DNA of 57,421 nucleotides from positions 1 to 57,421 of the IMG/VR virus record IMGVR_UViG_3300031566_000036, one strand, 5' to 3'. The translations under genes and the position numbers were made by a program. Positions 1 through 9,593 of this stretch are shown here, piece after piece. The stretch is from a virus. Taxonomy: Duplodnaviria; Caudoviricetes. The stretch's first letter is position 1, and each line of letters starts with the position of its first letter. The notes under the pieces were generated by a model. That model saw only the letters and a program-made list of their open reading frames with translations, was not told where the DNA came from and ran no database searches.

Positions 1-153
1 GAAGCCTTCGGGCATGGCTTCTTTGAATGGGTACACTTCGGGATTTTTGTCGCCTACAAGGTCGAAGACTACTCGCCCGTGCTTCTTCGCCTTTTCGGGT
101 GTAGGCTTAACGGTTGGTTTTGCCGGCTCAGCGGCGGGTTTTACTCTTGCCAT
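1..153 (-). CDS. Early hypothetical protein, truncated by the window edge (MARVKPAAEPAKPTVKPTPEKAKKHGRVVFDLVGDKNPEVYPFKEAMPEGF...)
   Basis: Not in the ORF track. ATG at 153, AAGGAG RBS upstream, frame open to the edge. Shares MPEGF with the 572-955 protein. Confidence 0.8.
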   Translation of the reverse strand, partial: MARVKPAAEPAKPTVKPTPEKAKKHGRVVFDLVGDKNPEVYPFKEAMPEGF

Positions 154-184
154 AAATTTTGCTCCTTATTCAAAAATTTCGTTG

Positions 185-247
185 TTGGCCGTCTCATCAG
201 CAACGGTCGCCAATCCGTTGGACGCGGACTCCGTTCCGCGTTTCGAT
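185..247 (-). ncRNA. Type II hammerhead ribozyme HH1
   Basis: Minus strand reads AUC GAAA CGCGGA-ACGGAG-UCCGCG UC/ CAACGG-AUUGGCGA-CCGUUG CUGAUGA GAC GGCCAA. Predicted cleavage 221/220. Stem II is only 2 bp; UUGGC/GCCAA pseudoknot. Confidence 0.88.
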
Positions 248-248
248 T

Positions 249-422
249 TTAAAAGATTTCAATCATTCGATTCAGTTCGATGAGCGCCCTTGCATAGCAC
301 TTGTCGCCCTCATCACCAAAGGTGTTTACAAAAATCATCAAGCATTCATCATGCTCTTCAGTGTCACTGCCTTCTTTTTGCAAAGCTACGCTCTGCTTGA
401 AGATGTCATCGTCCGTAAGCAT
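249..422 (-). CDS. Early hypothetical protein (57 aa, MLTDDDIFKQ...)
   Basis: Start moved to the ATG at 422, which follows an AGGAGA RBS. The longer ORF runs through HH2. Confidence 0.75.
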   Translation of the reverse strand: MLTDDDIFKQSVALQKEGSDTEEHDECLMIFVNTFGDEGDKCYARALIELNRMIEIF

Positions 423-445
423 TTTATTTCTCCTATAAAAATGTT

Positions 446-517
446 TGACTTGTCTCATCAGGCAGTGGAAGTCACTCACTACGACGCGGTACAGTCCGTT
501 GCACCGCGTTTCGACAA
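446..517 (-). ncRNA. Type II hammerhead ribozyme HH2
   Basis: UUGUC GAAA CGCGGUGCA-ACGGAC-UGUACCGCG UC/ GUAGUG-AGUGACUUC-CACUGC CUGAUGA GACAA GUCA. Predicted cleavage 483/482. Confidence 0.92.
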
Positions 518-571
518 TCATCCATGATTTAATATAGACCAACCAGCTTCTTGCTGGTGGTAGCCCAACAG

Positions 572-955
572 CTATTCAGCCGCGGCTGCAGCGATAAGAG
601 CCTCAACGTCAATCCCTTGAGCGATGAGCTGCGCTTTGAGTTCGTTCATCTTGCTGTTCAAGCGTACAATTTGTTTCTTCTTGCGACGGTCAGCAGCTGA
701 ACCCATCGTTCGGCACTCTTCGGCCTGTGCTCTGAAGCCAGCCATCTTGTACGCCATTTCCTCGGCGCGGTGGTCATAGTAGAGCGCCTCAGTTGTGAAG
801 TTTCTTTTCTTCAAAGGTTTGTAGTCTTTGAAGTTGAATCCTTCGGGCATGACGACGTTATACGCTTCTTTGGCAATCTTGAAGCCTTCGCGTTTCTTGT
901 TGACCTTTACTGTTTTGACTTCGACTGTGATTGCTTTTTTGTTTGACTTTGCCAT
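572..955 (-). CDS. Early basic hypothetical protein with C-terminal coiled coil
   Basis: 127-aa ORF, AGGAGA RBS, Lys/Arg rich. Confidence 0.85.
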   Translation of the reverse strand: MAKSNKKAITVEVKTVKVNKKREGFKIAKEAYNVVMPEGFNFKDYKPLKKRNFTTEALYYDHRAEEMAYKMAGFRAQAEECRTMGSAADRRKKKQIVRLNSKMNELKAQLIAQGIDVEALIAAAAAE

Positions 956-994
956 TGTACTATCTCCTATGTTTGAAGTTTTGAAACTTTTCTG

Positions 995-1051
995 AGTCTC
1001 ATCAGTGTCACCTTATAGTGACAGACGCGGAACGGATTCCGCGTTTCGACT
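995..1051 (-). ncRNA. Type II hammerhead ribozyme HH3
   Basis: AGUC GAAA CGCGGAA-UCCG-UUCCGCG UC/ UGUCAC-UAUAAG-GUGACA CUGAUGA GACU. Predicted cleavage 1024/1023. Confidence 0.93.
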
Positions 1052-1056
1052 TTAAT

Positions 1057-1302
1057 CTATTCTTGACAATACTTTGTACCGTCTTCGTCGATGCATCCAC
1101 AATTATCGCATGTGATTGGTTTGATTAAAGCGGTGCGAATCTTTTTCATCGCTTTACTCCAACTCTCTTCAGCTTTTTGCAATTGCAATTCGATGTCGCC
1201 AATCATTACTGCTTCTGTGTTAGGATTGTCAGTAACAAAATTCGTCTTGCGTAAAAGTTCGAAAAGATATTCAACCTGTTCTTTTGTAAGTTCTACGTTC
1301 AT
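1057..1302 (-). CDS. Early hypothetical protein with C-terminal Cys cluster (CDNCGC..YC)
   Basis: 81-aa ORF, AGGAGA RBS. Confidence 0.8.
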   Translation of the reverse strand: MNVELTKEQVEYLFELLRKTNFVTDNPNTEAVMIGDIELQLQKAEESWSKAMKKIRTALIKPITCDNCGCIDEDGTKYCQE

Positions 1303-1333
1303 TTTAATATCTCCTATAAAAATGTTTTGGCTT

Positions 1334-1397
1334 GTCTCATCAGCACGAGCTCTTACTCGTGGACGCCCGACATGAGGTAATCATCGGGCGTTTCGAC
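1334..1397 (-). ncRNA. Type II hammerhead ribozyme HH4
   Basis: GUC GAAA CGCCCGA-(UGAUUACCUCAUG)-UCGGGCG UC/ CACGAG-UAAGAG-CUCGUG CUGAUGA GAC. Predicted cleavage 1362/1361. Confidence 0.92.
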
Positions 1398-1438
1398 TTG
1401 CATGCCGTCCGTGACATTACTACAATCCTTGGAGATTA

Positions 1439-1765
1439 TTATGAATCCAACTTTTCGAGCTTTGCTTGAACGGCGGCGAGTTGAGCTTCCAACGTCTCGC
1501 GACGTTTCGTAATGCGCTCAGCTTTCTTTGCTTCGCGTTCGTCCTTAGTCGCTTCGAGGATGATTGCCTTCTCGACGTTATTCGCAATCGTTCCAATGCG
1601 AGCAGCAACCCGTACGATTTGTGGAGCAAACCGCACCATGATGTCGTCCGATACTCCAACGATGCAAATTGATTTTGCAATGTCTTTCAGGTTGGCGACT
1701 GTGCCGGGAGTTGTGTCAATGTTTGTGTTGGTTCGGACCGTGGTTTTCTTTGTTGACTTTGCCAT
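1439..1765 (-). CDS. Early hypothetical protein with C-terminal coiled coil
   Basis: 108-aa ORF, AGGAGA RBS. 5' UTR nearly identical to that of 572-955; both proteins start MAKS. Confidence 0.85.
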   Translation of the reverse strand: MAKSTKKTTVRTNTNIDTTPGTVANLKDIAKSICIVGVSDDIMVRFAPQIVRVAARIGTIANNVEKAIILEATKDEREAKKAERITKRRETLEAQLAAVQAKLEKLDS

Positions 1766-1804
1766 TTTACTATCTCCTATGTTTGGGGTTTTGAAACTTT
1801 TCTG

Positions 1805-1861
1805 AGTCTCATCAGCACTGCCTTATAACAGTGGACGCGACTTCCGTGTCGCGTTTCGACT
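1805..1861 (-). ncRNA. Type II hammerhead ribozyme HH5
   Basis: AGUC GAAA CGCGAC-ACGGAA-GUCGCG UC/ CACUG-UUAUAAGG-CAGUG CUGAUGA GACU. Predicted cleavage 1834/1833. Confidence 0.93.
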
Positions 1862-1862
1862 T

Positions 1863-2057
1863 TCATTTTGCAACTTGACCAATGCCACATTCATTTTTGA
1901 ATTTGAGCGCTTGGTGTTTTTTAGCGAAGCCAAACAACAATCGTCCGTCGTTGTCAGCATGGCCAAAAAATTCACCATGATGTTTTTTGCAAGCTTGATG
2001 AAATGTGTGAAGCAATACGTTTTCGTTTCTGCCTGCTTGAATAAATACCTTTGCCAT
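1863..2057 (-). CDS. Early hypothetical protein (64 aa, MAKVFIQAG...)
   Basis: Start moved to the ATG at 2057, behind an AGGAGA RBS. Confidence 0.8.
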   Translation of the reverse strand: MAKVFIQAGRNENVLLHTFHQACKKHHGEFFGHADNDGRLLFGFAKKHQALKFKNECGIGQVAK

Positions 2058-2137
2058 TTTAATATCTCCTATAAAAATAGTTAGGTTAAAAAACATGAGT
2101 CCGAGCAATGATATTCGATTGCTCGGTGTCGCGTCTT

Positions 2138-2386
2138 TTAATCTTCAAGAATTTCGATGTTTTCACAAAGGTCAAGATCTTGCCAAAACATTTGAATCAT
2201 TTGACAAAGTTCTTCAAACGTTCCAGTGTATTTGACTACGGGCCAACATCCACCCGGTCCAACTTCTTGGACAACTTCAACATCAACATCGTTGTCTTGA
2301 CAATATTGTTGTAGGTAACAATTTCTGTCGAGATTCATCGTGTCAAGTTCAACACAGCTAATTTTGTCGTTTCTTTTTGTTGCCAT
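2138..2386 (-). CDS. Early acidic hypothetical protein
   Basis: 82-aa ORF, AGGAGA RBS, first gene of the early operon. Confidence 0.82.
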   Translation of the reverse strand: MATKRNDKISCVELDTMNLDRNCYLQQYCQDNDVDVEVVQEVGPGGCWPVVKYTGTFEELCQMIQMFWQDLDLCENIEILED

Positions 2387-2409
2387 AATTCAATCTCCTA
2401 TAAAAATGT

Positions 2410-2478
2410 TTGGCTTGTCTCATCAGCACGGTTTGCCAATTTCCGTGGAACCGCGAGATGGCTCTCGCGGGTTTCGAC
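2410..2478 (-). ncRNA. Type II hammerhead ribozyme HH6 (variant cleavage site)
   Basis: GUC GAAA C CCGCGAGA-GCCA-UCUCGCGG UUC/ CACGG-AAAUUGGCAAA-CCGUG CUGAUGA GAC AAGCCAA. UUC triplet with a C-U mismatch in stem III. Predicted cleavage 2448/2447. Confidence 0.85.
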
Positions 2479-2538
2479 TTTAGGAGATTAGTGACTTATT
2501 CTTTTACTGCTTGCTCACAAGCAACAGCAGTGACAGTA

Positions 2539-2587
2539 GTCCAACTCAGAGTCCCAGGATATTCTATCCGTCCAACTTAGAGTCCCA
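2539..2587. repeat. Two 18-bp direct repeats GTCCAACTYAGAGTCCCA
   Basis: Copies at 2539-2556 and 2570-2587, one mismatch, separated by a small GGATA..TATCC hairpin. Confidence 0.85.
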
Positions 2588-2776
2588 TGTCCGCTTCGCA
2601 GCAGTCACTCAAAAAAATTTTTGATACCATCGAATTTTACCGTAGCGTCAGAATTTCTTGCGTGCTTCTCAGCCGGGTCGCATCTCGGCGTCCGCCCATT
2701 CGACATTTGCTACAGTCTCATGCCCTTGTTTTTGGCACCGTATTATTAACTTATCAATCAATCAATTTCAATTACA

Positions 2777-2804
2777 ATTATACCATATAGTATAAAAATG
2801 TAAA
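2777..2804 (-). promoter_or_regulatory. Sigma70-type promoter for the early operon
   Basis: TTTACA-16 bp-TATAAT with extended TG and an upstream A/T tract. Same design as the promoter at 16701-16729. Confidence 0.75.
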
Positions 2805-3034
2805 CTAAAAAATAAAATTTTTCTTAAAATTTATCATATTTTTTCTGCATCCGTAAAGTGTTATAAACAATGGCTTTATATCTCACGTTTAAGGCCTCTA
2901 CAAGCCTCGTGGAGGCACTTTACTATTCTCGTGTATAATCAATCGAGCAATTGAATAAAGTTTAATGGCGCTTGATTTAACCGGCATTTAACCATATATA
3001 ATAGAGTATCGACAATAACGGCGATGGGATTAAC

Positions 3035-4981
3035 TTAAATAAATTTTATTTCAGCTGCTTTATCTTTCGACGCTATTTTCCAATTTTTATCAGATGTGCC
3101 ACATGACGTTCGCATAGGCACACGAAATTTGAAAGTAACGTTTTCAATCTCATCTTTAATTTTCTTTAGGGTAGTGACATCTTTTGATAGCCCTATAGGA
3201 TTGTACTGAGCGGTCTCATCATGTACTGAAGCGAAAAAGTCAATTCCTAAATCGCGAATGAATTTATTATACCGTGGAGCGAGTGCAACGGTTCGTTCTT
3301 TCATAACGTCAGCGGCAGTTGACTGAACGATAGTATTAAAAGCACGATAGGACGCTTGCTCAGGTAAATGACGATGCCGACCGTAAGCATTAAAAACATA
3401 ACCTCGACTCAAAAGATTATTTGATGCGGCAGTTGTTGCAATTCTTAAACCCGGTAACGTGCTATGATACTCTTGATAAACATTCTCTCCACGCTTAAAA
3501 CAAAGCATCTCAAAAACTCGCAAGCGTTGGTCTTCTCGAACCTTGCCGGCTGCAACCAATTCTTCGACTTTATTCAAAAGACCACCTACAAGCTCCATGT
3601 TTAACGCGAGCATTGAAACTACTTTCTTCTTGCCACCACCGAATGCAATTGCAAAGTTTACGTTTTTCGCTGGGCCTCGTGGAATGCCACACATCTCTGC
3701 AACCCAATTATGAAAGTCAGTATCTGGGTTTTCATTATAAGCAACAATTGCGTTTTTATCTTTGATATAATGTACGATAATTCTGAATTCGATTTGTGAA
3801 AAGTCCCAACTAATAATTTCTTGACCTTCGGGCGGGTGTACGAGTTCTTTTGCTTCTTCAGATAACTGTTGAGAGTTTGGTCGACGACAAGACATTCTAC
3901 CAGTGCGCACAATTTGATTATAATCTGGGTGCATAACACCGTTAACTTCGTGCTCAAGGTACGTCGTAAGAAATAAACTGTTAAGCGTGTGCAATTTTCG
4001 GTATGCTTGGACTTTGTTCACTATTGTAGTCAATAATTCTGATTCTTGTACAAGTGGATGCGCAAGATACGAAATCAATGCGGCTTTATCGAATGATGGT
4101 TCAAGTTTTTCAGTACGACCTAAAATAGGTAAACCGTACTTATTACATAGTACTTCATAGCAGTCTGCATTCGTATGTGGTCGAATCGCATAACCTGTGA
4201 GTTTATGCAGCTCTTCTTCTAATTGTGACAACCGATAAAGCGTGACTAATTGTTTTTGCTGAAGTTCAAGTCGGTCAACGTGAAGGCCAATAACTTCCAT
4301 ATCAAACAAAACTGGAGTTAATAAAATCTCTGTTTCCCATACCGTTTCTGTTTGCTCATGCCGTCGTCTTAAGATATAGCGATGCAACTTCCTATTTGTC
4401 AAAACATCTTGACAGGCGTACTCTCCAATAATGTCTCCGGGTACGTCGCCGTAGTTCTTACTCTTGCACCCAGCAAGGTACGCCTTTAGTCTATCTTCAC
4501 TTTTTGAAGTATCTTCTTCAAGCCATTCACGCGACAGGGTATTTAACTCATAACCAAAGCGGTCTGAATTAATAATTTTTGAAAGTGTATTAGTATCGAC
4601 TAATCGACAATTAAAAATGATCCCGTCTTGCTTTGCAAAGTGTGCATCGAATTTAACATTGTGGTTCACCCACTCGTAGCAAGAGTTTATTTGTTCTTCT
4701 GCCCAGTCCAAAACAGGGTCAAGCGGAAGATTCCACTTTTCATGTGTACACCTTATCGGCACGTACCACGCTCCAGGTACATCATCTGCAGTAGCGGCAA
4801 TACCGCAAATCCTATGTCCATGATACGGTTTAAACGCTGGTTCATTTGAGTCAAAAGACGTCGTCTCCGTATCAAGGTACAGCGCTTTCGCGTTTTTAAG
4901 ATTCGGCAGTTCACTTAAGTTTTGAATTAATCGACCGCCATTAGGAAATTGTAACACGATTCGGTCTCCAAACATTTCCAT
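3035..4981 (-). CDS. polA: Family A DNA polymerase with 3'-5' exonuclease domain
   Basis: Exonuclease motifs DTET, HNVKFD, YACQD. Polymerase motifs TGRMS, DFSQIEFR (A), AKNVNFAIAFG (B), VHDE (C). Confidence 0.95.
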   Translation of the reverse strand: MEMFGDRIVLQFPNGGRLIQNLSELPNLKNAKALYLDTETTSFDSNEPAFKPYHGHRICGIAATADDVPGAWYVPIRCTHEKWNLPLDPVLDWAEEQINSCYEWVNHNVKFDAHFAKQDGIIFNCRLVDTNTLSKIINSDRFGYELNTLSREWLEEDTSKSEDRLKAYLAGCKSKNYGDVPGDIIGEYACQDVLTNRKLHRYILRRRHEQTETVWETEILLTPVLFDMEVIGLHVDRLELQQKQLVTLYRLSQLEEELHKLTGYAIRPHTNADCYEVLCNKYGLPILGRTEKLEPSFDKAALISYLAHPLVQESELLTTIVNKVQAYRKLHTLNSLFLTTYLEHEVNGVMHPDYNQIVRTGRMSCRRPNSQQLSEEAKELVHPPEGQEIISWDFSQIEFRIIVHYIKDKNAIVAYNENPDTDFHNWVAEMCGIPRGPAKNVNFAIAFGGGKKKVVSMLALNMELVGGLLNKVEELVAAGKVREDQRLRVFEMLCFKRGENVYQEYHSTLPGLRIATTAASNNLLSRGYVFNAYGRHRHLPEQASYRAFNTIVQSTAADVMKERTVALAPRYNKFIRDLGIDFFASVHDETAQYNPIGLSKDVTTLKKIKDEIENVTFKFRVPMRTSCGTSDKNWKIASKDKAAEIKFI

Positions 4982-5468
4982 TGCATGTGACTATTGCATG
5001 ACAACTATTACACAATAGCACTCCATTCTTTGGATCGTTATTATAATGGTTTCCGTCAAGATGGTGCGCTGAAAGCTTCCTACCATTATCTTCTTTCATT
5101 TTACCACATATTTGACAAACTTTATCTCGAACTCGAATAGTCTCACAAAACCTCTTTGATTCTACACAAAATCCGGTACTATAATTTGAATTATTTTTGC
5201 CAGTTCGATCATGTGTTTTATCAAATTTTCTTATTCTTCTTTTAGACACTTCTCGTTGTAAACACCCGCAACTTTTTGTATGCCCAATTCGTAGATAGTT
5301 TCCCTGTATAATCTTTTTTGTATCACAATCACATTGACATAAATAATAATCACAGCCTTTTAATTTAGATGTTTCTTTGTCATAATGCAAAACTAAAAGA
5401 CGCCCAAATTTCTTGCTAATCATTTTTAGTTGCTCTTGACCTGCTGTTCCTATAAATCCTCTTGGCAT
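4941..5468 (-). CDS. HNH homing endonuclease
   Basis: N-terminal FGRL..CQCDC..SCGC domain; CQIC..HHLDGN..N..LLCNSCH. Confidence 0.88.
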   Translation of the reverse strand: MPRGFIGTAGQEQLKMISKKFGRLLVLHYDKETSKLKGCDYYLCQCDCDTKKIIQGNYLRIGHTKSCGCLQREVSKRRIRKFDKTHDRTGKNNSNYSTGFCVESKRFCETIRVRDKVCQICGKMKEDNGRKLSAHHLDGNHYNNDPKNGVLLCNSCHAIVTCNGNVWRPNRVTIS

Positions 5469-5482
5469 AATAGTTCCTTAGT

Positions 5483-5950
5483 TTAGCGTAGTGACTTCCA
5501 ATGTTTTAATAGTACTAACTGCGTTTCTATTCTTAAATTTAACTCGTCGATAATATCAAGTTTGCATTCTTTTAATAAGTCTACACCATCTAAACTTCTG
5601 TACTCTTCAGACCAAATAACACCTACGATACTTGAGCAATTTAATATCGCCCTTGCACAAGCTTCACAAGGCGACTTTGTTGTATATAATAAACTCGGCT
5701 TTGCAAAGTCGTTGTTGAACTTTATAACAGCGTTAAGTTCAGCATGAATGCATCCGCAGTTACCTGGCACTCCACTGCAAGAATCATTTGGTAAATGTTT
5801 CGATGGCCCGTTATATCCAATCGAGTATATTGCGGAGCAATCCGTAGGAAAAATAATTGCACCTACTTGTAAACGCTTACATACCGACAATGACTCTAAT
5901 AACTTTCCCATTTGAATAAACGTTTTTAGTTTTTTCAAATACCGTTTCAT
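5483..5950 (-). CDS. dCMP deaminase
   Basis: VGA, GYNG, HAELNA and PCEAC zinc motifs. Confidence 0.9.
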   Translation of the reverse strand: MKRYLKKLKTFIQMGKLLESLSVCKRLQVGAIIFPTDCSAIYSIGYNGPSKHLPNDSCSGVPGNCGCIHAELNAVIKFNNDFAKPSLLYTTKSPCEACARAILNCSSIVGVIWSEEYRSLDGVDLLKECKLDIIDELNLRIETQLVLLKHWKSLR

Positions 5951-5952
5951 AG

Positions 5953-6552
5953 CTATTGTTCCTTAAATAGGCGATTCTTCCCAGAACCATCATCGGTTAT
6001 TTCCCAGCATATAAACTTTTCTTGTTTCCAACCTACTGGGACATTGTAATACGAAAATTCAAAAATCACATTTCTTAACTCAGTTCTTCGGCAGTGCCAT
6101 ACACAAAGGTCATGTTTATTTCCGCAGTTTATTTTTTGGCCTACCGCATAAACAATCGTTTCGTCAATCTTACCTTCGTTTGTCACTGTTCGTACAGTGC
6201 CGGGTCCGTTTGCAATTTCCATAACAGCCGTGCCTTGCTCTTGAATTAAAATGCAACCTCTGAACCCGCAATCCTTTGGGTTAATTTTATCAGCAACGAT
6301 TAATTGTAGGCCAGTGTCGAACCACTTGGACGCTTTTTTAAGTAGTATGAACTTGGGTATCGTTGGAAAGTGCGGCGCTATTAAGTTTGGTCCCAGTTCA
6401 TCACGATAAAATGTTCGAACGCTGAATGAATTTCGTTGACCCACAAAGTCACTGATTTTTAATTCCTTCATCGAGGTTATAAGCACACTATTCTCTGCGT
6501 TCAGACCAAACTTTCGCGGCAGTTGAACTCGCTGAAATTTATTTCTTCGCAT
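5953..6552 (-). CDS. Hypothetical protein in the nucleotide-modification cluster
   Basis: About 200-aa ORF coupled to its neighbours; no recognised motif. Confidence 0.65.
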   Translation of the reverse strand: MRRNKFQRVQLPRKFGLNAENSVLITSMKELKISDFVGQRNSFSVRTFYRDELGPNLIAPHFPTIPKFILLKKASKWFDTGLQLIVADKINPKDCGFRGCILIQEQGTAVMEIANGPGTVRTVTNEGKIDETIVYAVGQKINCGNKHDLCVWHCRRTELRNVIFEFSYYNVPVGWKQEKFICWEITDDGSGKNRLFKEQ

Positions 6553-7480
6553 TTTCAAATCCCTTTCGTAATACCGGTGAAAAGATTACGTTCTCATCAT
6601 GACCAAACTTTCGAGCACAACACGACACTAAATCGTATAGCATTCCTTCGCCCAATGAACGTTGTTCTGCGATTCCGTTAAGCCCGTTTCGATACCTGCC
6701 TTCAGCACACAACGCAGTTTGGATTTGTGAACGCCAAACTCCGATGTCTCGCGGCCAGTCATGTCGTAAGTCTATGTTAGCGCGATACTGCCGACCTATG
6801 GGAACAAGCAGTGATTCTTTGGCAGCTTGCCAATTCTTTTCGTACAGATGCATGCTACCAACTTGATGCGTGTAGGTTCCGTACTTAACATTTAATGCAT
6901 CGGCGATTAATCGCTGCAAACAAGTAAATGCGAATATATCGTACGGTGTACCGAGCCATGCATCATTGCTACGCATTGTAGCAATTAAATGTAATGCACC
7001 ATTCCGTATCAAAAATTGTAGGCTCATGGTACATGGCAAGTCTTTATGGTCAGCAAGATATGCGTGCTCTAAGTCACTACCTTGCCAAAATGAAATAAGC
7101 GCTTGCCGTGAATTCGGATTTTTATGCAAAACATCAATCAATAAACTAAGTTGATTGAACTGTTTTATTCGAGCGCCGTACGCGCCAAACGCAACGCCAT
7201 CTTCTGCGAAATTTACGTACTGCGGCGCATATGCAATTAACATTTCGATTTTACCCGTGCCCGATAAGTACCACAGTGTTTCAGCCGCGGCATACATTGG
7301 TGACAGTTTACGTCGTGGGTTTAATAAAAACGTTGACTCAATATTTAGTAACGTCGCACTATACCCAGTGACTTCTTTTATTTGCCCCACGCGACTTGGC
7401 ATTTCCCGTCCCGTCGCAATGATATTATGAACTACGTTTAACCATAATTCATCAATGTTACTGTACGCATTATTTCCCAT
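6539..7480 (-). CDS. Thymidylate synthase-family enzyme, dCMP hydroxymethylase-like
   Basis: SRQA, DLPCT, MRSNDAWLGTPYD, SMHLY. Asp at the position where dUMP-specific ThyA has Asn (PFN). Confidence 0.85.
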   Translation of the reverse strand: MGNNAYSNIDELWLNVVHNIIATGREMPSRVGQIKEVTGYSATLLNIESTFLLNPRRKLSPMYAAAETLWYLSGTGKIEMLIAYAPQYVNFAEDGVAFGAYGARIKQFNQLSLLIDVLHKNPNSRQALISFWQGSDLEHAYLADHKDLPCTMSLQFLIRNGALHLIATMRSNDAWLGTPYDIFAFTCLQRLIADALNVKYGTYTHQVGSMHLYEKNWQAAKESLLVPIGRQYRANIDLRHDWPRDIGVWRSQIQTALCAEGRYRNGLNGIAEQRSLGEGMLYDLVSCCARKFGHDENVIFSPVLRKGFENAKK

Positions 7481-8666
7481 CTTGTGACTCCTTAAACGGC
7501 GGTAAATAATTAGTTAGTTTGAATACTTTTTCAATAGGTTTATCAGTATGATTCTCACCGACCCATTGTCCAGTGTGATGATTGTATGTTGTACTAAAAT
7601 CATCATCACCCCACATATCATTTAAGTACAACTTTATTTGTTCGCCGAGCCAAGCACCAGTCGCGGGTACTACACCTTTTGCGATTTGAGCAATGGGCTG
7701 TGCTCCAACTGGTACAAAGTTTTTCGGCCAACCCATTAACGCAGCGGTCTCTAATGCGGTTATTGGTCGGTCTAAAGTAGGATGAATATTATTGCCAAAA
7801 CTTGAAGCTATTGTTGGGCAATGTCCGTTCCACTTTAAACGGCAAGGCGCATGCAAACTAAATGGTACCTCAGACAAACGATACACATATTTATCATAGT
7901 GATACGGGCTAACTCTTTTCATTTCTTCAAGGCGCTTGCGAGCAACATCATGATAGGACTCACCTTGCCGCAAAATTGGAATCATTACTTTTTCTTGAGC
8001 ATTAAACTCTGTATAAGTATCAGGTGTCCAAGGATTGTTATTGCCCCAAAGTTTGCCGCCCACAGTTTTTCGACCTAAAAGTGGTAATAACACATCGCCT
8101 ACCGTCGTCCGAAACTCTGGCAAGTTTGGTCGCATGACATTAAAGTTTTTGTTATTACGATACGCTACAAAGAAATATCTTCGGCGTTTCTGCGCATTGC
8201 CTTCAGCCGCAGTATTTACAAACAGATGGGCTATCCGATAACCTGCGGGAACAAATAAGTCATCCCGTAAAATGTCAAGTAATGGCCGACCAACGGTGTA
8301 AGCTTGCTGCACGCTTTCAAACGCAATTAAATCAAAGTCAGCATGTATTCCAAATCTGCATAAATCCCAAATGTCTCTTGTAGGTTTCGCGTTTGGTCCA
8401 CGCACAGTAGAATTAGAACCTGCACTATAACTTGAGAATGATGTGCATCGCGGATTGCCATAACAAAATGAACAGCCTTCCCATTCACTTTTATAGTCAT
8501 CCCAACCTCGCCACGTATCAGCGTTCATGAACTTCGTCTTATGCGCCTTGCACGTTTCTCCACCGAAGTTGTGAATCTCTAATTGACCTACGACCGGCAT
8601 CACAGTTTTCATGCCCATTGTAAACCCACCCGCAAAACAGTGAACTCCTACACCTTTATGTTTCAT
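7470..8666 (-). CDS. Divergent C5 DNA cytosine methyltransferase
   Basis: FAGGF (motif I), GNPRC (IV), FESV (VI), QKRRRYF (VIII), QIAKGV (X). Start probably MKHKG at 8666. Confidence 0.8.
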   Translation of the reverse strand: MKHKGVGVHCFAGGFTMGMKTVMPVVGQLEIHNFGGETCKAHKTKFMNADTWRGWDDYKSEWEGCSFCYGNPRCTSFSSYSAGSNSTVRGPNAKPTRDIWDLCRFGIHADFDLIAFESVQQAYTVGRPLLDILRDDLFVPAGYRIAHLFVNTAAEGNAQKRRRYFFVAYRNNKNFNVMRPNLPEFRTTVGDVLLPLLGRKTVGGKLWGNNNPWTPDTYTEFNAQEKVMIPILRQGESYHDVARKRLEEMKRVSPYHYDKYVYRLSEVPFSLHAPCRLKWNGHCPTIASSFGNNIHPTLDRPITALETAALMGWPKNFVPVGAQPIAQIAKGVVPATGAWLGEQIKLYLNDMWGDDDFSTTYNHHTGQWVGENHTDKPIEKVFKLTNYLPPFKESQDGK

Positions 8667-8844
8667 TTGTGGCCTCCGAACATATTCCGTCCAATTTACA
8701 TTTCGCGTCATCACGTCCATGTTTCGCACCATGTATAAAAGCCATAATAAAAGCTGGCTTAAAAACTTTCTCGCATAAAAAGTCAGCGTGCGCTTTAGCA
8801 TCTATTTGGTACTTTTCTTTTAACTCATCTGATAACTCTGCCAT
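8656..8844 (-). CDS. Small hypothetical protein
   Basis: 62-aa ORF with AGGAG RBS, translationally coupled. Confidence 0.65.
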   Translation of the reverse strand: MAELSDELKEKYQIDAKAHADFLCEKVFKPAFIMAFIHGAKHGRDDAKCKLDGICSEATNET

Positions 8845-9593
8845 TATTCGGTCTCCTTAAGCCATTCTGCAATTTTCTGCATTGATTTCGCGGGTAAAAA
8901 TAAAGTGTCCCATCGACCTTTAGTTCCTGCACATGCTGACCAACCACCAAAAGTAAACTCACGTACATCATCAGCCCGTATACTTTCGCAACCTGTCACG
9001 CCACCCTTGATAATCCAAACCCACCACTCGCCGGGATAAGTAGATGACTCTTTTTTATTAACAAGCACTTTCATTGTCACTTGCTTATCTGTCACACAAT
9101 TTGTACGGATAGCATCGACCTCCACTCCACGATGCAAATCAAGTACTCGCTTCAAATTCGGCGGGACGTAGTTTGGCCCCTTATCCCGTAGACGAATATC
9201 ATCTTTTTTACGTGGAGCTTTTGTTAAGTTCGAAGCACATACTTCGTCGACTGCTTGAGGCAACGGAAGGCCAAACGCAATCGCTGTTCCCTTAGTGACA
9301 AACTCTAAATCGGCTAAACCGTCGAGCGTTTCAAGCTCATCACAGTTCGCTAATCCAAGAATTGCCTCGCCAAGTTCTTCGACCATCAATTGTGTTCGAG
9401 CAAGTCGTGGGTCTGTGCACGTTTTCATCATTTCTTCCATTATCGTTGCAAGTTCCAACAGCGCGTTAGCGACATCCTTCTCAAGAAACTCACTCATGAT
9501 AACATGCTCTTTAAGTTCAGTCAAGTTTTCGTTAATCGAGAAGCCTTGCTTGCAGTGAAACAACTTCGTTTTTTCAAATTGTTTGTCGTTCAT
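8844..9593 (-). CDS. MazG-like (all-alpha) NTP pyrophosphohydrolase with extra C-terminal domain
   Basis: EELGE..DGLAD..V..SNLTK..KGPNY pattern. Confidence 0.8.
   Translation of the reverse strand: MNDKQFEKTKLFHCKQGFSINENLTELKEHVIMSEFLEKDVANALLELATIMEEMMKTCTDPRLARTQLMVEELGEAILGLANCDELETLDGLADLEFVTKGTAIAFGLPLPQAVDEVCASNLTKAPRKKDDIRLRDKGPNYVPPNLKRVLDLHRGVEVDAIRTNCVTDKQVTMKVLVNKKESSTYPGEWWVWIIKGGVTGCESIRADDVREFTFGGWSACAGTKGRWDTLFLPAKSMQKIAEWLKETE

Follow-up and report, generated by a model that had tools for sequence, protein, structure and literature searches.

A leader hammerhead ribozyme in a phage operon with a flanking helix that may mask the ribosome-binding site of the first cistron

Could a natural hammerhead ribozyme hide the ribosome-binding site (RBS) of the gene that follows it, and expose this site by cutting its own RNA? 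The question is raised by HH6, a type II hammerhead on the minus strand of the IMG/VR virus record IMGVR_UViG_3300031566_000036, where it is the first of six such ribozymes in a phage operon and lies between an untranslated leader and gene 1. The window, that is, the whole stretch of DNA analysed here, is the complete record of 57,421 bases, which is classed as linear and is estimated to be 87% complete. The leader ends in a strand complementary to the Shine-Dalgarno (SD) region of gene 1, hereafter referred to as the anti-SD strand. The best reading of this arrangement, to which we give about an even chance, is that cleavage by HH6 would unmask the RBS of the first cistron and release the leader as a conserved structured RNA. 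The coordinates of the features are collected in Table 1.

The anti-SD strand, UAAUCUCCUA, lies 2 nt from HH6 on its 5' side and faces the SD strand of gene 1, UAGGAGAUUG, across the ribozyme. A first-pass annotation of the sequence had claimed full complementarity over 10 bp between 2490-2481 and 2400-2391, and this was confirmed: nine Watson-Crick pairs and one terminal U-G pair enclose HH6, and the helix persists in the RNAfold minimum-energy structure as well as in the centroid, whether the context is 121 or 406 nt long. The 121-nt fold with the helix has a z value of -3.5. The same annotation had described the helix as an extension of stem II, but the two are not contiguous: they are separated by AA on the 5' side and by 16 nt on the 3' side, the latter tail including the pseudoknot partner GCCAA.

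The complementarity is rarely reproduced in randomized sequence. When the 103 nt upstream were shuffled 20,000 times and G-U pairs were allowed, a helix of at least 10 bp over the GGAG core appeared in 0.6% of the shuffles, and one of at least 8 bp in 4%. The motif TAGGAGAT occurs six times in the 57 kb of the window, versus 1.19 +/- 1.11 expected; five of the sites are SDs of operon genes, and the sixth is the reverse complement that forms the anti-SD of HH6. Likewise, ATCTCCTA has a single occurrence on the minus strand of the 57-kb window, within the anti-SD strand, and the 8-mer complement of the extended SD of the operon is found once in 57 kb, 2 nt from HH6. This extended SD, UAGGAGAU, is shared by five operon genes (962-2400, minus strand) and elsewhere in the 57 kb is present only as its reverse complement at 2481-2488. 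The anti-SD fits best to the cognate gene 1 site, with 10 bp, and could pair with the other operon SDs over 8 bp. Selection seems a better account of the helix than accident. The possibility that the reverse complement of the anti-SD is the RBS of a plus-strand gene was rejected: the only in-frame start is GTG at 2491, 4 nt from GGAG, and would open a frame of about 29 aa, and the plus-strand GGAG-to-start spacing of only 2-4 nt in relatives counts against such a gene.

The predicted accessibility of the SD agrees with a masked precursor and an open product. The unpaired probability of the gene 1 SD is 0.02 in the precursor, with 60, 150 or 300 nt of upstream sequence, versus 0.64 in the 3' product that begins at 2447. 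The SDs that follow the five internal hammerheads of the window are all unmasked: in the 150- and 300-nt contexts, their unpaired probabilities are 0.35-0.88 for the uncut RNA, and after cleavage they are 0.54-0.85. For the copy at 1397, the value falls to 0.19 when only 60 nt of upstream sequence are included, versus 0.62 with 150 nt; a second SD complement, AAUCUCC (1431-1437, minus strand), directly follows the two stop codons that end gene 3, 33 nt ahead of this hammerhead, and can pair over 7 bp with its SD. Over 190 hammerheads, the median SD accessibility is 0.48 before and 0.57 after cleavage, and only eight pass from below 0.1 to above 0.4. Seven of these eight are among the ten clearest anti-SD cases described below, and four of these are first in arrays of three or more.

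The anti-SD lies 5' and the SD lies 3' of the scissile bond (2448/2447), as in engineered switches of this type. The predicted net binding of the two cleavage products is -6.1 kcal/mol, compared with -11.5 kcal/mol for the isolated 10-mer duplex. Because the products are held only by stem II and the anti-SD helix, with this net energy, their duplex should separate at cellular concentrations.

HH6 displays the core of a type II hammerhead, namely CUGAUGA, GAAA, a GAC/GUC stem II with the G10.1-C11.1 pair and the pair A2472-U2449 (A15.1-U16.1). Loops cap stems I and III, stem II is open, and the NUH triplet preceding the presumed cleavage site is UUC (H = C). Loop I forms a pseudoknot with the tail 3' of stem II, and this pairing covaries among the copies of the window, being UUGGC/GCCAA in HH6 and UGACUU/AAGUCA in HH2 (515-452). 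Stem II comprises only 3 bp in every copy of the window. Type II hammerheads, the pseudoknot of loop I with the 3' tail, and the clustering of such ribozymes between phage or prophage genes are known (Perreault et al. 2011, PMC3088659; RF02276). The hammerheads presented in the main text of that work resemble HH6 in their core, open stem II, loop-closed stems I and III, and pseudoknot, and the arrays it presents, like that of the window, flank small phage genes and are proposed to process long transcripts. The main text does not describe a distal helix onto a downstream SD, a restriction of such a helix to the leader copy, or a conserved mismatch at 15.2/16.2, and the terms 'Shine' and 'ribosome binding' do not appear in it.

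A deviation from this architecture is located next to the core. The first-pass annotation had singled out HH6 as the only copy with a UUC site and a C-U mismatch, and this observation was fully borne out: HH6 alone of the six copies combines a UUC triplet with a mismatch of C15.2 (2471) and U16.2 (2450), and the other five have GUC with a C-G pair at these positions. The position is thus unpaired in HH6, and it is occupied by C·U in all nine rows of the alignment of leader homologues described below. A mismatch at 15.2/16.2 was detected in 5 of 194 other candidate hammerheads scanned, three of the five being probably not true hammerheads. We regard the mismatch as a deviation that is not disqualifying, because the core of HH6 is intact. 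Mismatches at this pair are expected to slow hammerhead cleavage; a literature search on the kinetic effect gave nothing usable. A slipped register of stem III that restores a GU-type site was rejected on inspection, since it needs a bulged C and breaks stem I.

Homologues of HH6 were collected with a pattern that combines the 5' half of its stem III with the hammerhead 3' core, which retrieved 12 loci from metagenomes and L038 from viral contigs. A contig scan with the HH6 stem III also returned one unrelated match, in a metagenome-assembled genome of Ilumatobacteraceae (L153). Eight homologues, L144 (near-identical), L038, L146, L147, L148, L149, L151 and L152, were aligned with the window in nine rows. 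Where the upstream sequence suffices, they sit after the same promoter and leader start, and these two elements are conserved in L038, L146, L148, L151, L152 and L049. The phages have diverged considerably, the identity of the window to L038 being 28% for gene 1 and 63% for the C-terminus of the polymerase.

The hammerhead core is invariant in 9/9 rows. Changes on both sides of a pair were found for all five pairs of stem I, for two pairs of distal stem III, for three of the five pseudoknot pairs and for all five pairs of the upstream leader hairpin, which argues that the ribozyme fold is under selection. The anti-SD is kept at the same place in six of the eight homologues (L144, L151, L038, L152, L146 and L147), and the calculated duplex energies of the window and these six range from -9.9 to -13.3 kcal/mol. 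The comparison with internal copies, of which 14 were available from five relatives with arrays, is equally clear: among relatives, UUC together with C·U is present in 7/7 leader copies versus 0/14 internal ones, and a proximal duplex of -9.9 kcal/mol or lower in 5/7 versus 0/14, the duplexes of the internal copies extending from -1.5 (weakest) to -7.6 kcal/mol (strongest). The pattern of one anti-SD and several matching SDs recurs in the relatives. In the best reading, HH6 would be a specialised "leader" copy of the type II hammerhead of this phage, and the leader-specific C·U mismatch would fit a tuned or slower ribozyme.

A wider comparison was made with three sets of loci. Set A (63 IMG/VR loci) consists of hammerheads followed by TAGGAG and was not selected on upstream sequence; set B (75 IMG/VR loci) was selected for CUCC located 2-10 nt upstream of a hammerhead; and a custom scanner found 204 distinct hammerheads in both sets together. 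Because set B was chosen for CUCC, set C, drawn like set A without regard to upstream sequence, was added as an independent replicate with at least 109 new loci and at least 191 new hammerheads, its counts below being among the matches listed. The 14 positions adjoining the ribozyme contain 14 occurrences of CUCC in set A, versus 12 in the 53 positions beyond them. Pairing with the cognate SD over 7-11 bp was found in L048, L092, L094, L033, L049, L053/L055, L118 and L038, with 8-11 bp in all but L049 (7-9, depending on the measure). The anti-SD is always positioned 1-5 nt from the hammerhead, and the SD flanks differ across these lineages (GAU, GAA, GAC, GUG and GAG).

The flanks of the anti-SD follow those of the SD. 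Where a proximal CUCC is combined with a GGAG SD, as in 24 hammerheads, the helix reaches 2.46 bp past the core in cognate combinations versus 1.64 +/- 0.23 bp in permuted ones, and 0/2000 permutations reached the observed value; at least four extra pairs are formed in 33% of the cognate pairs versus 12% of the permuted ones (p = 0.0015). Each of the three positions 5' of CUCC shows three to five standard pair types. This extension into the flanks and the variety of pair types across lineages represent covariation evidence for the predicted anti-SD helix.

The position of the anti-SD hammerheads is also distinctive. In the ten clearest cases, the previous open reading frame (ORF) ends 4-556 nt (median about 120) before the hammerhead, compared with a median of 3 nt for 185 others, and six of the ten are first in their array (window 1/6, L092 1/12, L038 1/7, L049 1/5, L048 1/3 and L094 1/2). 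In sets A and B, helices of at least 7 bp over the SD were found for 5/22 first members versus 0/95 internal ones (p = 1.6e-4), and for 5/16 hammerheads at a gap of at least 150 nt versus 4/166 at shorter gaps (p = 2.8e-4). With an energy measure, defined as a duplex of -10 kcal/mol or lower covering the SD, the numbers are 5/16 first versus 0/65 internal in set A, and 6/34 versus 0/128 when sets A and C are pooled (p = 6e-5). In the pooled unbiased data, hammerheads that are first in an array are truly enriched, but a few lineages account for this, and the device is rare, being present in a few per cent of phage type II hammerheads.

Two variants deserve description. The contig L092 (minus strand, oriented 4096-9484) is a G+C-rich phage contig with an array of 12 type II hammerheads, the first of which is preceded by 271 nt without an ORF and has a 9-bp anti-SD, UCCUCCUUC/GAAGGAGGA. 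In L033, L118, L018/L058 and L213, the anti-SD is located directly at the end of the upstream ORF, where terminating ribosomes would open the helix, an arrangement that would correspond to ordinary translational coupling. In L033 (3840-3865, plus strand), the anti-SD AUUCUCCUA shares sequence with the final codons and the stop of the upstream ORF, giving a translational-coupling version of the design.

The following course of events is anticipated for the window. Transcription from the promoter at 2804-2777 would produce a structured leader of about 290 nt, then HH6 and gene 1. The anti-SD, which forms the last 10 nt of the leader, would pair with the SD region of gene 1 once this is made, thereby closing the open stem II and hiding the RBS. 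Self-cleavage after C2448 would leave products joined only by the 3-bp stem II and the 10-bp helix, so that an intramolecular helix would turn into a weak bimolecular duplex and dissociate. One product would be the leader RNA, whose 3' part comprises the anti-SD, then the stem III hairpin and a terminal 2',3'-cyclic phosphate; the other would be an mRNA with a 5'-OH, the stem I hairpin at its start and a free RBS. Translation of the first cistron would thus be limited to processed RNA, a message that begins with a 5'-OH and a stem I hairpin, as do those of all other operon cistrons. Ribosome loading, 17 nt from the ribozyme, would be prevented before HH6 has folded and cut, which would secure the release of the leader RNA. 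Both benefits would suit a device confined to leader copies. The C·U mismatch beside the core may set the speed of cleavage. The internal copies lie about 3 nt after a stop codon, and a failure to cut there would cost only a longer mRNA.

Several observations weigh against cleavage-dependent unmasking, or narrow it. Within the HH6 family, L148 has the same leader hammerhead and mismatch and lacks the anti-SD (-3.0 kcal/mol), and L149 carries AAUCAUA there instead; outside the SD, its tail contains UAUGAUU, a 7-bp match by eye that RNAduplex does not rank first. Because neither masks its SD, masking is dispensable in the family. The first-pass claim that the RBS is blocked and then released consequently stands in part: the predicted accessibilities, the conservation in 6/8 homologues, the restriction to leader copies and the other lineages speak for it, and L148 and L149 do without masking. 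Moreover, double-sided change affects 0/10 pairs of the anti-SD helix within the family; as far as the alignment tells, the family data amount to conservation of the helix and not to covariation, and unrelated constraints may have preserved the two strands. Other lineages have an anti-SD together with an ordinary C-G pair at 15.2-16.2. As these lineages combine the anti-SD with C-G, and L148 and L149 have the mismatch without SD masking, the two features are separable. The "timer" role proposed for HH6 is a conjecture; at a cleavage rate of about 1 per minute, the delay in translation would be short, and a timer would need slowing.

The statistics for other hammerheads have similar weaknesses. 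In set C, the energy measure gave only a non-significant trend (first 1/18 versus internal 0/63, p = 0.22), and the contiguous-helix measure was not replicated, with 1/19 first versus 3/67 internal members and with 0/8 at gaps of at least 150 nt versus 10/168. Over all hammerheads, the longest helix between the 70 nt upstream and the SD window reached at least 8 bp in 8.2% of cases versus 10.1% in the null, and a helix over the SD core was found in 3.0% versus 4.2% with permuted partners. Because near-identical SDs keep permutation from breaking the association, the analysis was based on position, flank covariation and array rank instead. The positives are not independent, since the window, L038 and L049 belong to one broader family, and L092 and L094 look related. 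In a single metatranscriptome run, 5% of the sampled words of the window were found, and two contigs were recovered at 150-209 and 666-816, outside HH6. The Rfam hammerhead II model (RF02276) does not score HH6 even at E<=10. At the gathering threshold, Rfam reports nothing for the window, and at E<=10 only the copy at 1398-1325 is scored as hammerhead II, with 35 bits versus a threshold of 37; the Rfam miss of HH6 is weak evidence, because the model also misses four of the five canonical copies. The copies not seen by Rfam were identified by their perfect cores, two hairpins and the pseudoknot between loop I and the 3' tail.

The main rival to unmasking is that the helix serves purely as a folding clamp, which closes stem II and insulates the ribozyme from the long structured untranslated leader, translation control being a side effect. 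Internal copies follow translated RNA and would need no clamp, and the SD would simply be the most stable pairing segment in the short tail. This is a live rival, although we consider it rather unlikely. The 7-bp closing helix that L149 appears to keep with a non-SD part of its tail is what such a clamp would predict; L148, without SD masking, also speaks for it, as do the link of the anti-SD to the leader context rather than to any gene, the shortness of stem II in all copies, and the sensitivity of type II activity to the geometry of stem II and the pseudoknot that is described in the main text of PMC3088659. However, at least 11 cases in at least four lineages pair with the SD itself, and the SD is chosen even in the G+C-rich L092, L094 and L048, whose linkers could supply a partner. 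L148 has no clamp whatever, the helix is absent from 5/6 hammerheads of the window and from 128/128 internal ones, and the addition of one pair to stem II lowered activity in an experiment of the same paper (PMC3088659).

Three further explanations can be weighed against the same data. The A/U-rich 10-bp helix could act as a cleavage-independent attenuator or thermometer that reduces initiation at gene 1 or tunes it with temperature, with the ribozyme merely placed in its loop. Its calculated energy of -11.5 to -13.3 kcal/mol falls in the range of SD-masking elements, and the C·U mismatch could mean poor cleavage, but compensatory change has preserved the hammerhead core, all three stems and the pseudoknot, and this points to a functional ribozyme; the helix would become bimolecular after cutting, with the weak net binding given above, and the anti-SD always abuts a hammerhead. 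We consider this explanation improbable. A role in trans, in which HH6 mainly releases the leader and the exposed anti-SD at its 3' end pairs with UAGGAGAU sites or other targets and damps them, appears decidedly improbable to us. It would account for an 8-mer exactly complementary to five SDs, the only other TAGGAGAT sites in the window, for a leader that is conserved, structured and covarying, and for the recurrence of one anti-SD with several matching SDs in the relatives. Nevertheless, the cognate site is the best one, eight base pairs are weak without a chaperone, and the shared SD makes a match in trans automatic, so that the match is not independent evidence. Finally, chance complementarity without function draws on the 8-bp helices found in shuffles and on the lack of an excess in the global tests over all hammerheads. 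It was already unlikely and receives hardly any weight from us, given the rarity of helices of at least 10 bp in the shuffles, the single occurrence of the 8-mer, the fixed position of the anti-SD in 6/8 homologues within an otherwise variable leader, and its covariation across lineages.

Downstream of the promoter, the minus strand encodes, in this order, the untranslated leader, HH6, gene 1, a terminator-like hairpin and five small genes, to which no function is assigned and each of which has a type II hammerhead 5' of it. The gene 1 product matches PHROG 5922 (unknown function) with E = 3e-5; no match above the cut-off was found in Pfam, and a search of viral contigs with the protein returned no relative. 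The equivalent search with the polymerase found only two relatives, of 43-44% identity, and blastn of window positions 1-3100 against deposited phages gave no match. The L038 junction that corresponds to 2101-2126 carries a hammerhead.

Table 1. Positions of HH6, its flanking strands and the neighbouring features in the window
Feature	Position	Strand	Remarks
HH6, type II hammerhead, first of six in phage operon	2417..2478	-	core, hairpins, pseudoknot
HH6 stem II, 3 bp, GUC/GAC	2478-2476 with 2419-2417	-	
HH6 GAAA	2475-2472	-	
HH6 stem III	2472-2449	-	C17 = 2448
HH6 stem I hairpin	2447-2427	-	
HH6 CUGAUGA	2426-2420	-	
HH6 pseudoknot	2410..2439	-	loop I UUGGC (2439-2435) with 3' tail GCCAA (2414-2410)
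HH6 cleavage site as predicted, 3' of C17 (2448) in the UUC triplet	2447..2448	-	from hammerhead consensus
Anti-SD strand UAAUCUCCUA	2481..2490	-	AA, then HH6, on the 3' side
SD strand UAGGAGAUUG of gene 1	2391..2400	-	GGAG core 2398-2395
Gene 1, 82-aa protein, cistron with the putatively masked RBS	2138..2386	-	AUG 2386-2384
Structured untranslated leader, about 290 nt, which HH6 would cut off	2479..2770	-	
Conserved leader 5' domain	2640-2747	-	hairpin and long-range stem enclosing inner helices
Two GGGACUCUnAGUUGGAC repeats in leader	2586-2570, 2555-2539	-	
Leader hairpin	2507-2530	-	5/5 stem pairs changed on both sides across homologues
Strong sigma-70-type promoter TTTACA-16-TATAAT with TG	2777..2804	-	11/12 matches, extended -10; predicted start about 2770
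Terminator-like hairpin and U-run, gene 1/gene 2 junction	2101..2126	-	only array junction without hammerhead
Five further type II hammerheads	1860-1806, 1397-1334, 1050-996, 515-452, 247-191	-	each after a stop codon and ahead of the following RBS
Family A DNA polymerase gene	3035-4981	-	5' of promoter and hammerhead operon

HH6 would release the leader as a discrete RNA. L146 and L152 have a conserved counterpart of the leader's 5' domain, and 6 of its 27 predicted pairs show compensatory changes among the three sequences. A search of the minus strand with Rfam gave no family or riboswitch match for the leader at E<=10, and the domain may be a new structured RNA. The leaders of L147, L149, L038, L148 and L151 contain several GGGAC/UUGGAC motifs, similar to the two repeats of the window, and GUGACAU motifs; these elements look like repeated protein-binding or GGA-type sites. 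The loop of the leader hairpin is GCUGAUGAUGGUCG in relatives and differs in the window; in seven relatives, this 14-nt loop reads GCUGAYKAUGGYCG and contains CUGAUGA and GUCG. The loop of the relatives recalls a hammerhead junction and resembles what might be left of one between two hammerheads. Hammerhead-like remnants are also present in the leaders of L152 (about 7590-7660, GUCGAAAC ... CUGAUUG) and L148 (from 2084, plus strand), which suggests that the leaders may derive from decayed hammerhead-gene cassettes.

Phages are known to unmask an RBS by processing a leader, as in the RNase III-dependent cases of lambda N and the T7 early mRNAs. There, as proposed for HH6, a leader helix occludes the RBS, and an endonucleolytic cut removes the upstream strand and activates translation. 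In contrast to those leaders, the HH6 RNA itself would be the nuclease, no host enzyme would be required, and the ends would be a 5'-OH and a 2',3'-cyclic phosphate. RiboJ insulators of synthetic operons likewise remove a variable 5' leader by self-cleavage and leave a standard hairpin ahead of the RBS, but they are designed for an exposed RBS, whereas that of HH6 would be hidden until cleavage.

The closest counterparts are man-made. The likeness to engineered SD-sequestering ribozyme switches, pointed out in the first-pass annotation, is apt as far as the main text of Felletti et al. 2016 (PMC5052635) describes them: twister versions are shown there, and the hammerhead design of Wieland and Hartig 2008 is cited. 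Active constructs gave 5- to 100-fold higher expression than inactive ones (PMC5052635), and the SD-sequestering logic thus works in bacteria. In these switches, as proposed for HH6, the SD is sequestered in a helix that is part of the ribozyme or closes it, and cleavage sets the SD free. They differ from HH6 in that they are artificial, are built on type I/III hammerheads or twister with the SD in stem I, stem III or P1/P3, and are usually fused to an aptamer. HH6 is natural and of type II, and its SD pairs beyond stem II; a conserved structured domain of the leader is located 5' of it and has no Rfam riboswitch match at E<=10. A literature search of the main texts of openly available articles retrieved no description of a natural hammerhead sequestering an SD. 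As far as this search shows, the SD-masking arrangement had previously only been built artificially.

A more elaborate possibility, which we regard as quite unlikely, is that leader, HH6 and anti-SD form a natural conditional ribozyme switch. The leader domain (2747-2640 and the GGGAC/UUGGAC repeats) would sense a ligand, a protein or the state of the host and tune the mismatch-weakened hammerhead, and cleavage would turn on the first cistron and release a stable leader RNA, the anti-SD of which can damp the five downstream UAGGAGAU cistrons. If true, this would be the natural counterpart of an aptazyme combined with a ribozyme-made regulatory RNA.

According to a 2019 review, the purpose of bacterial hammerheads needs additional work (PMC6765202). 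A natural SD-hiding hammerhead would, if true, provide one concrete and easily testable role, namely processing-dependent translation that is independent of host nucleases, and nature would have arrived at a design principle that synthetic biologists built in 2008. The analysis also brings out a putative specialised leader paralogue of the hammerhead, distinguished by its anti-SD and by a conserved mismatch beside the core; the conserved structured leader RNA joined to it is worth a study of its own.

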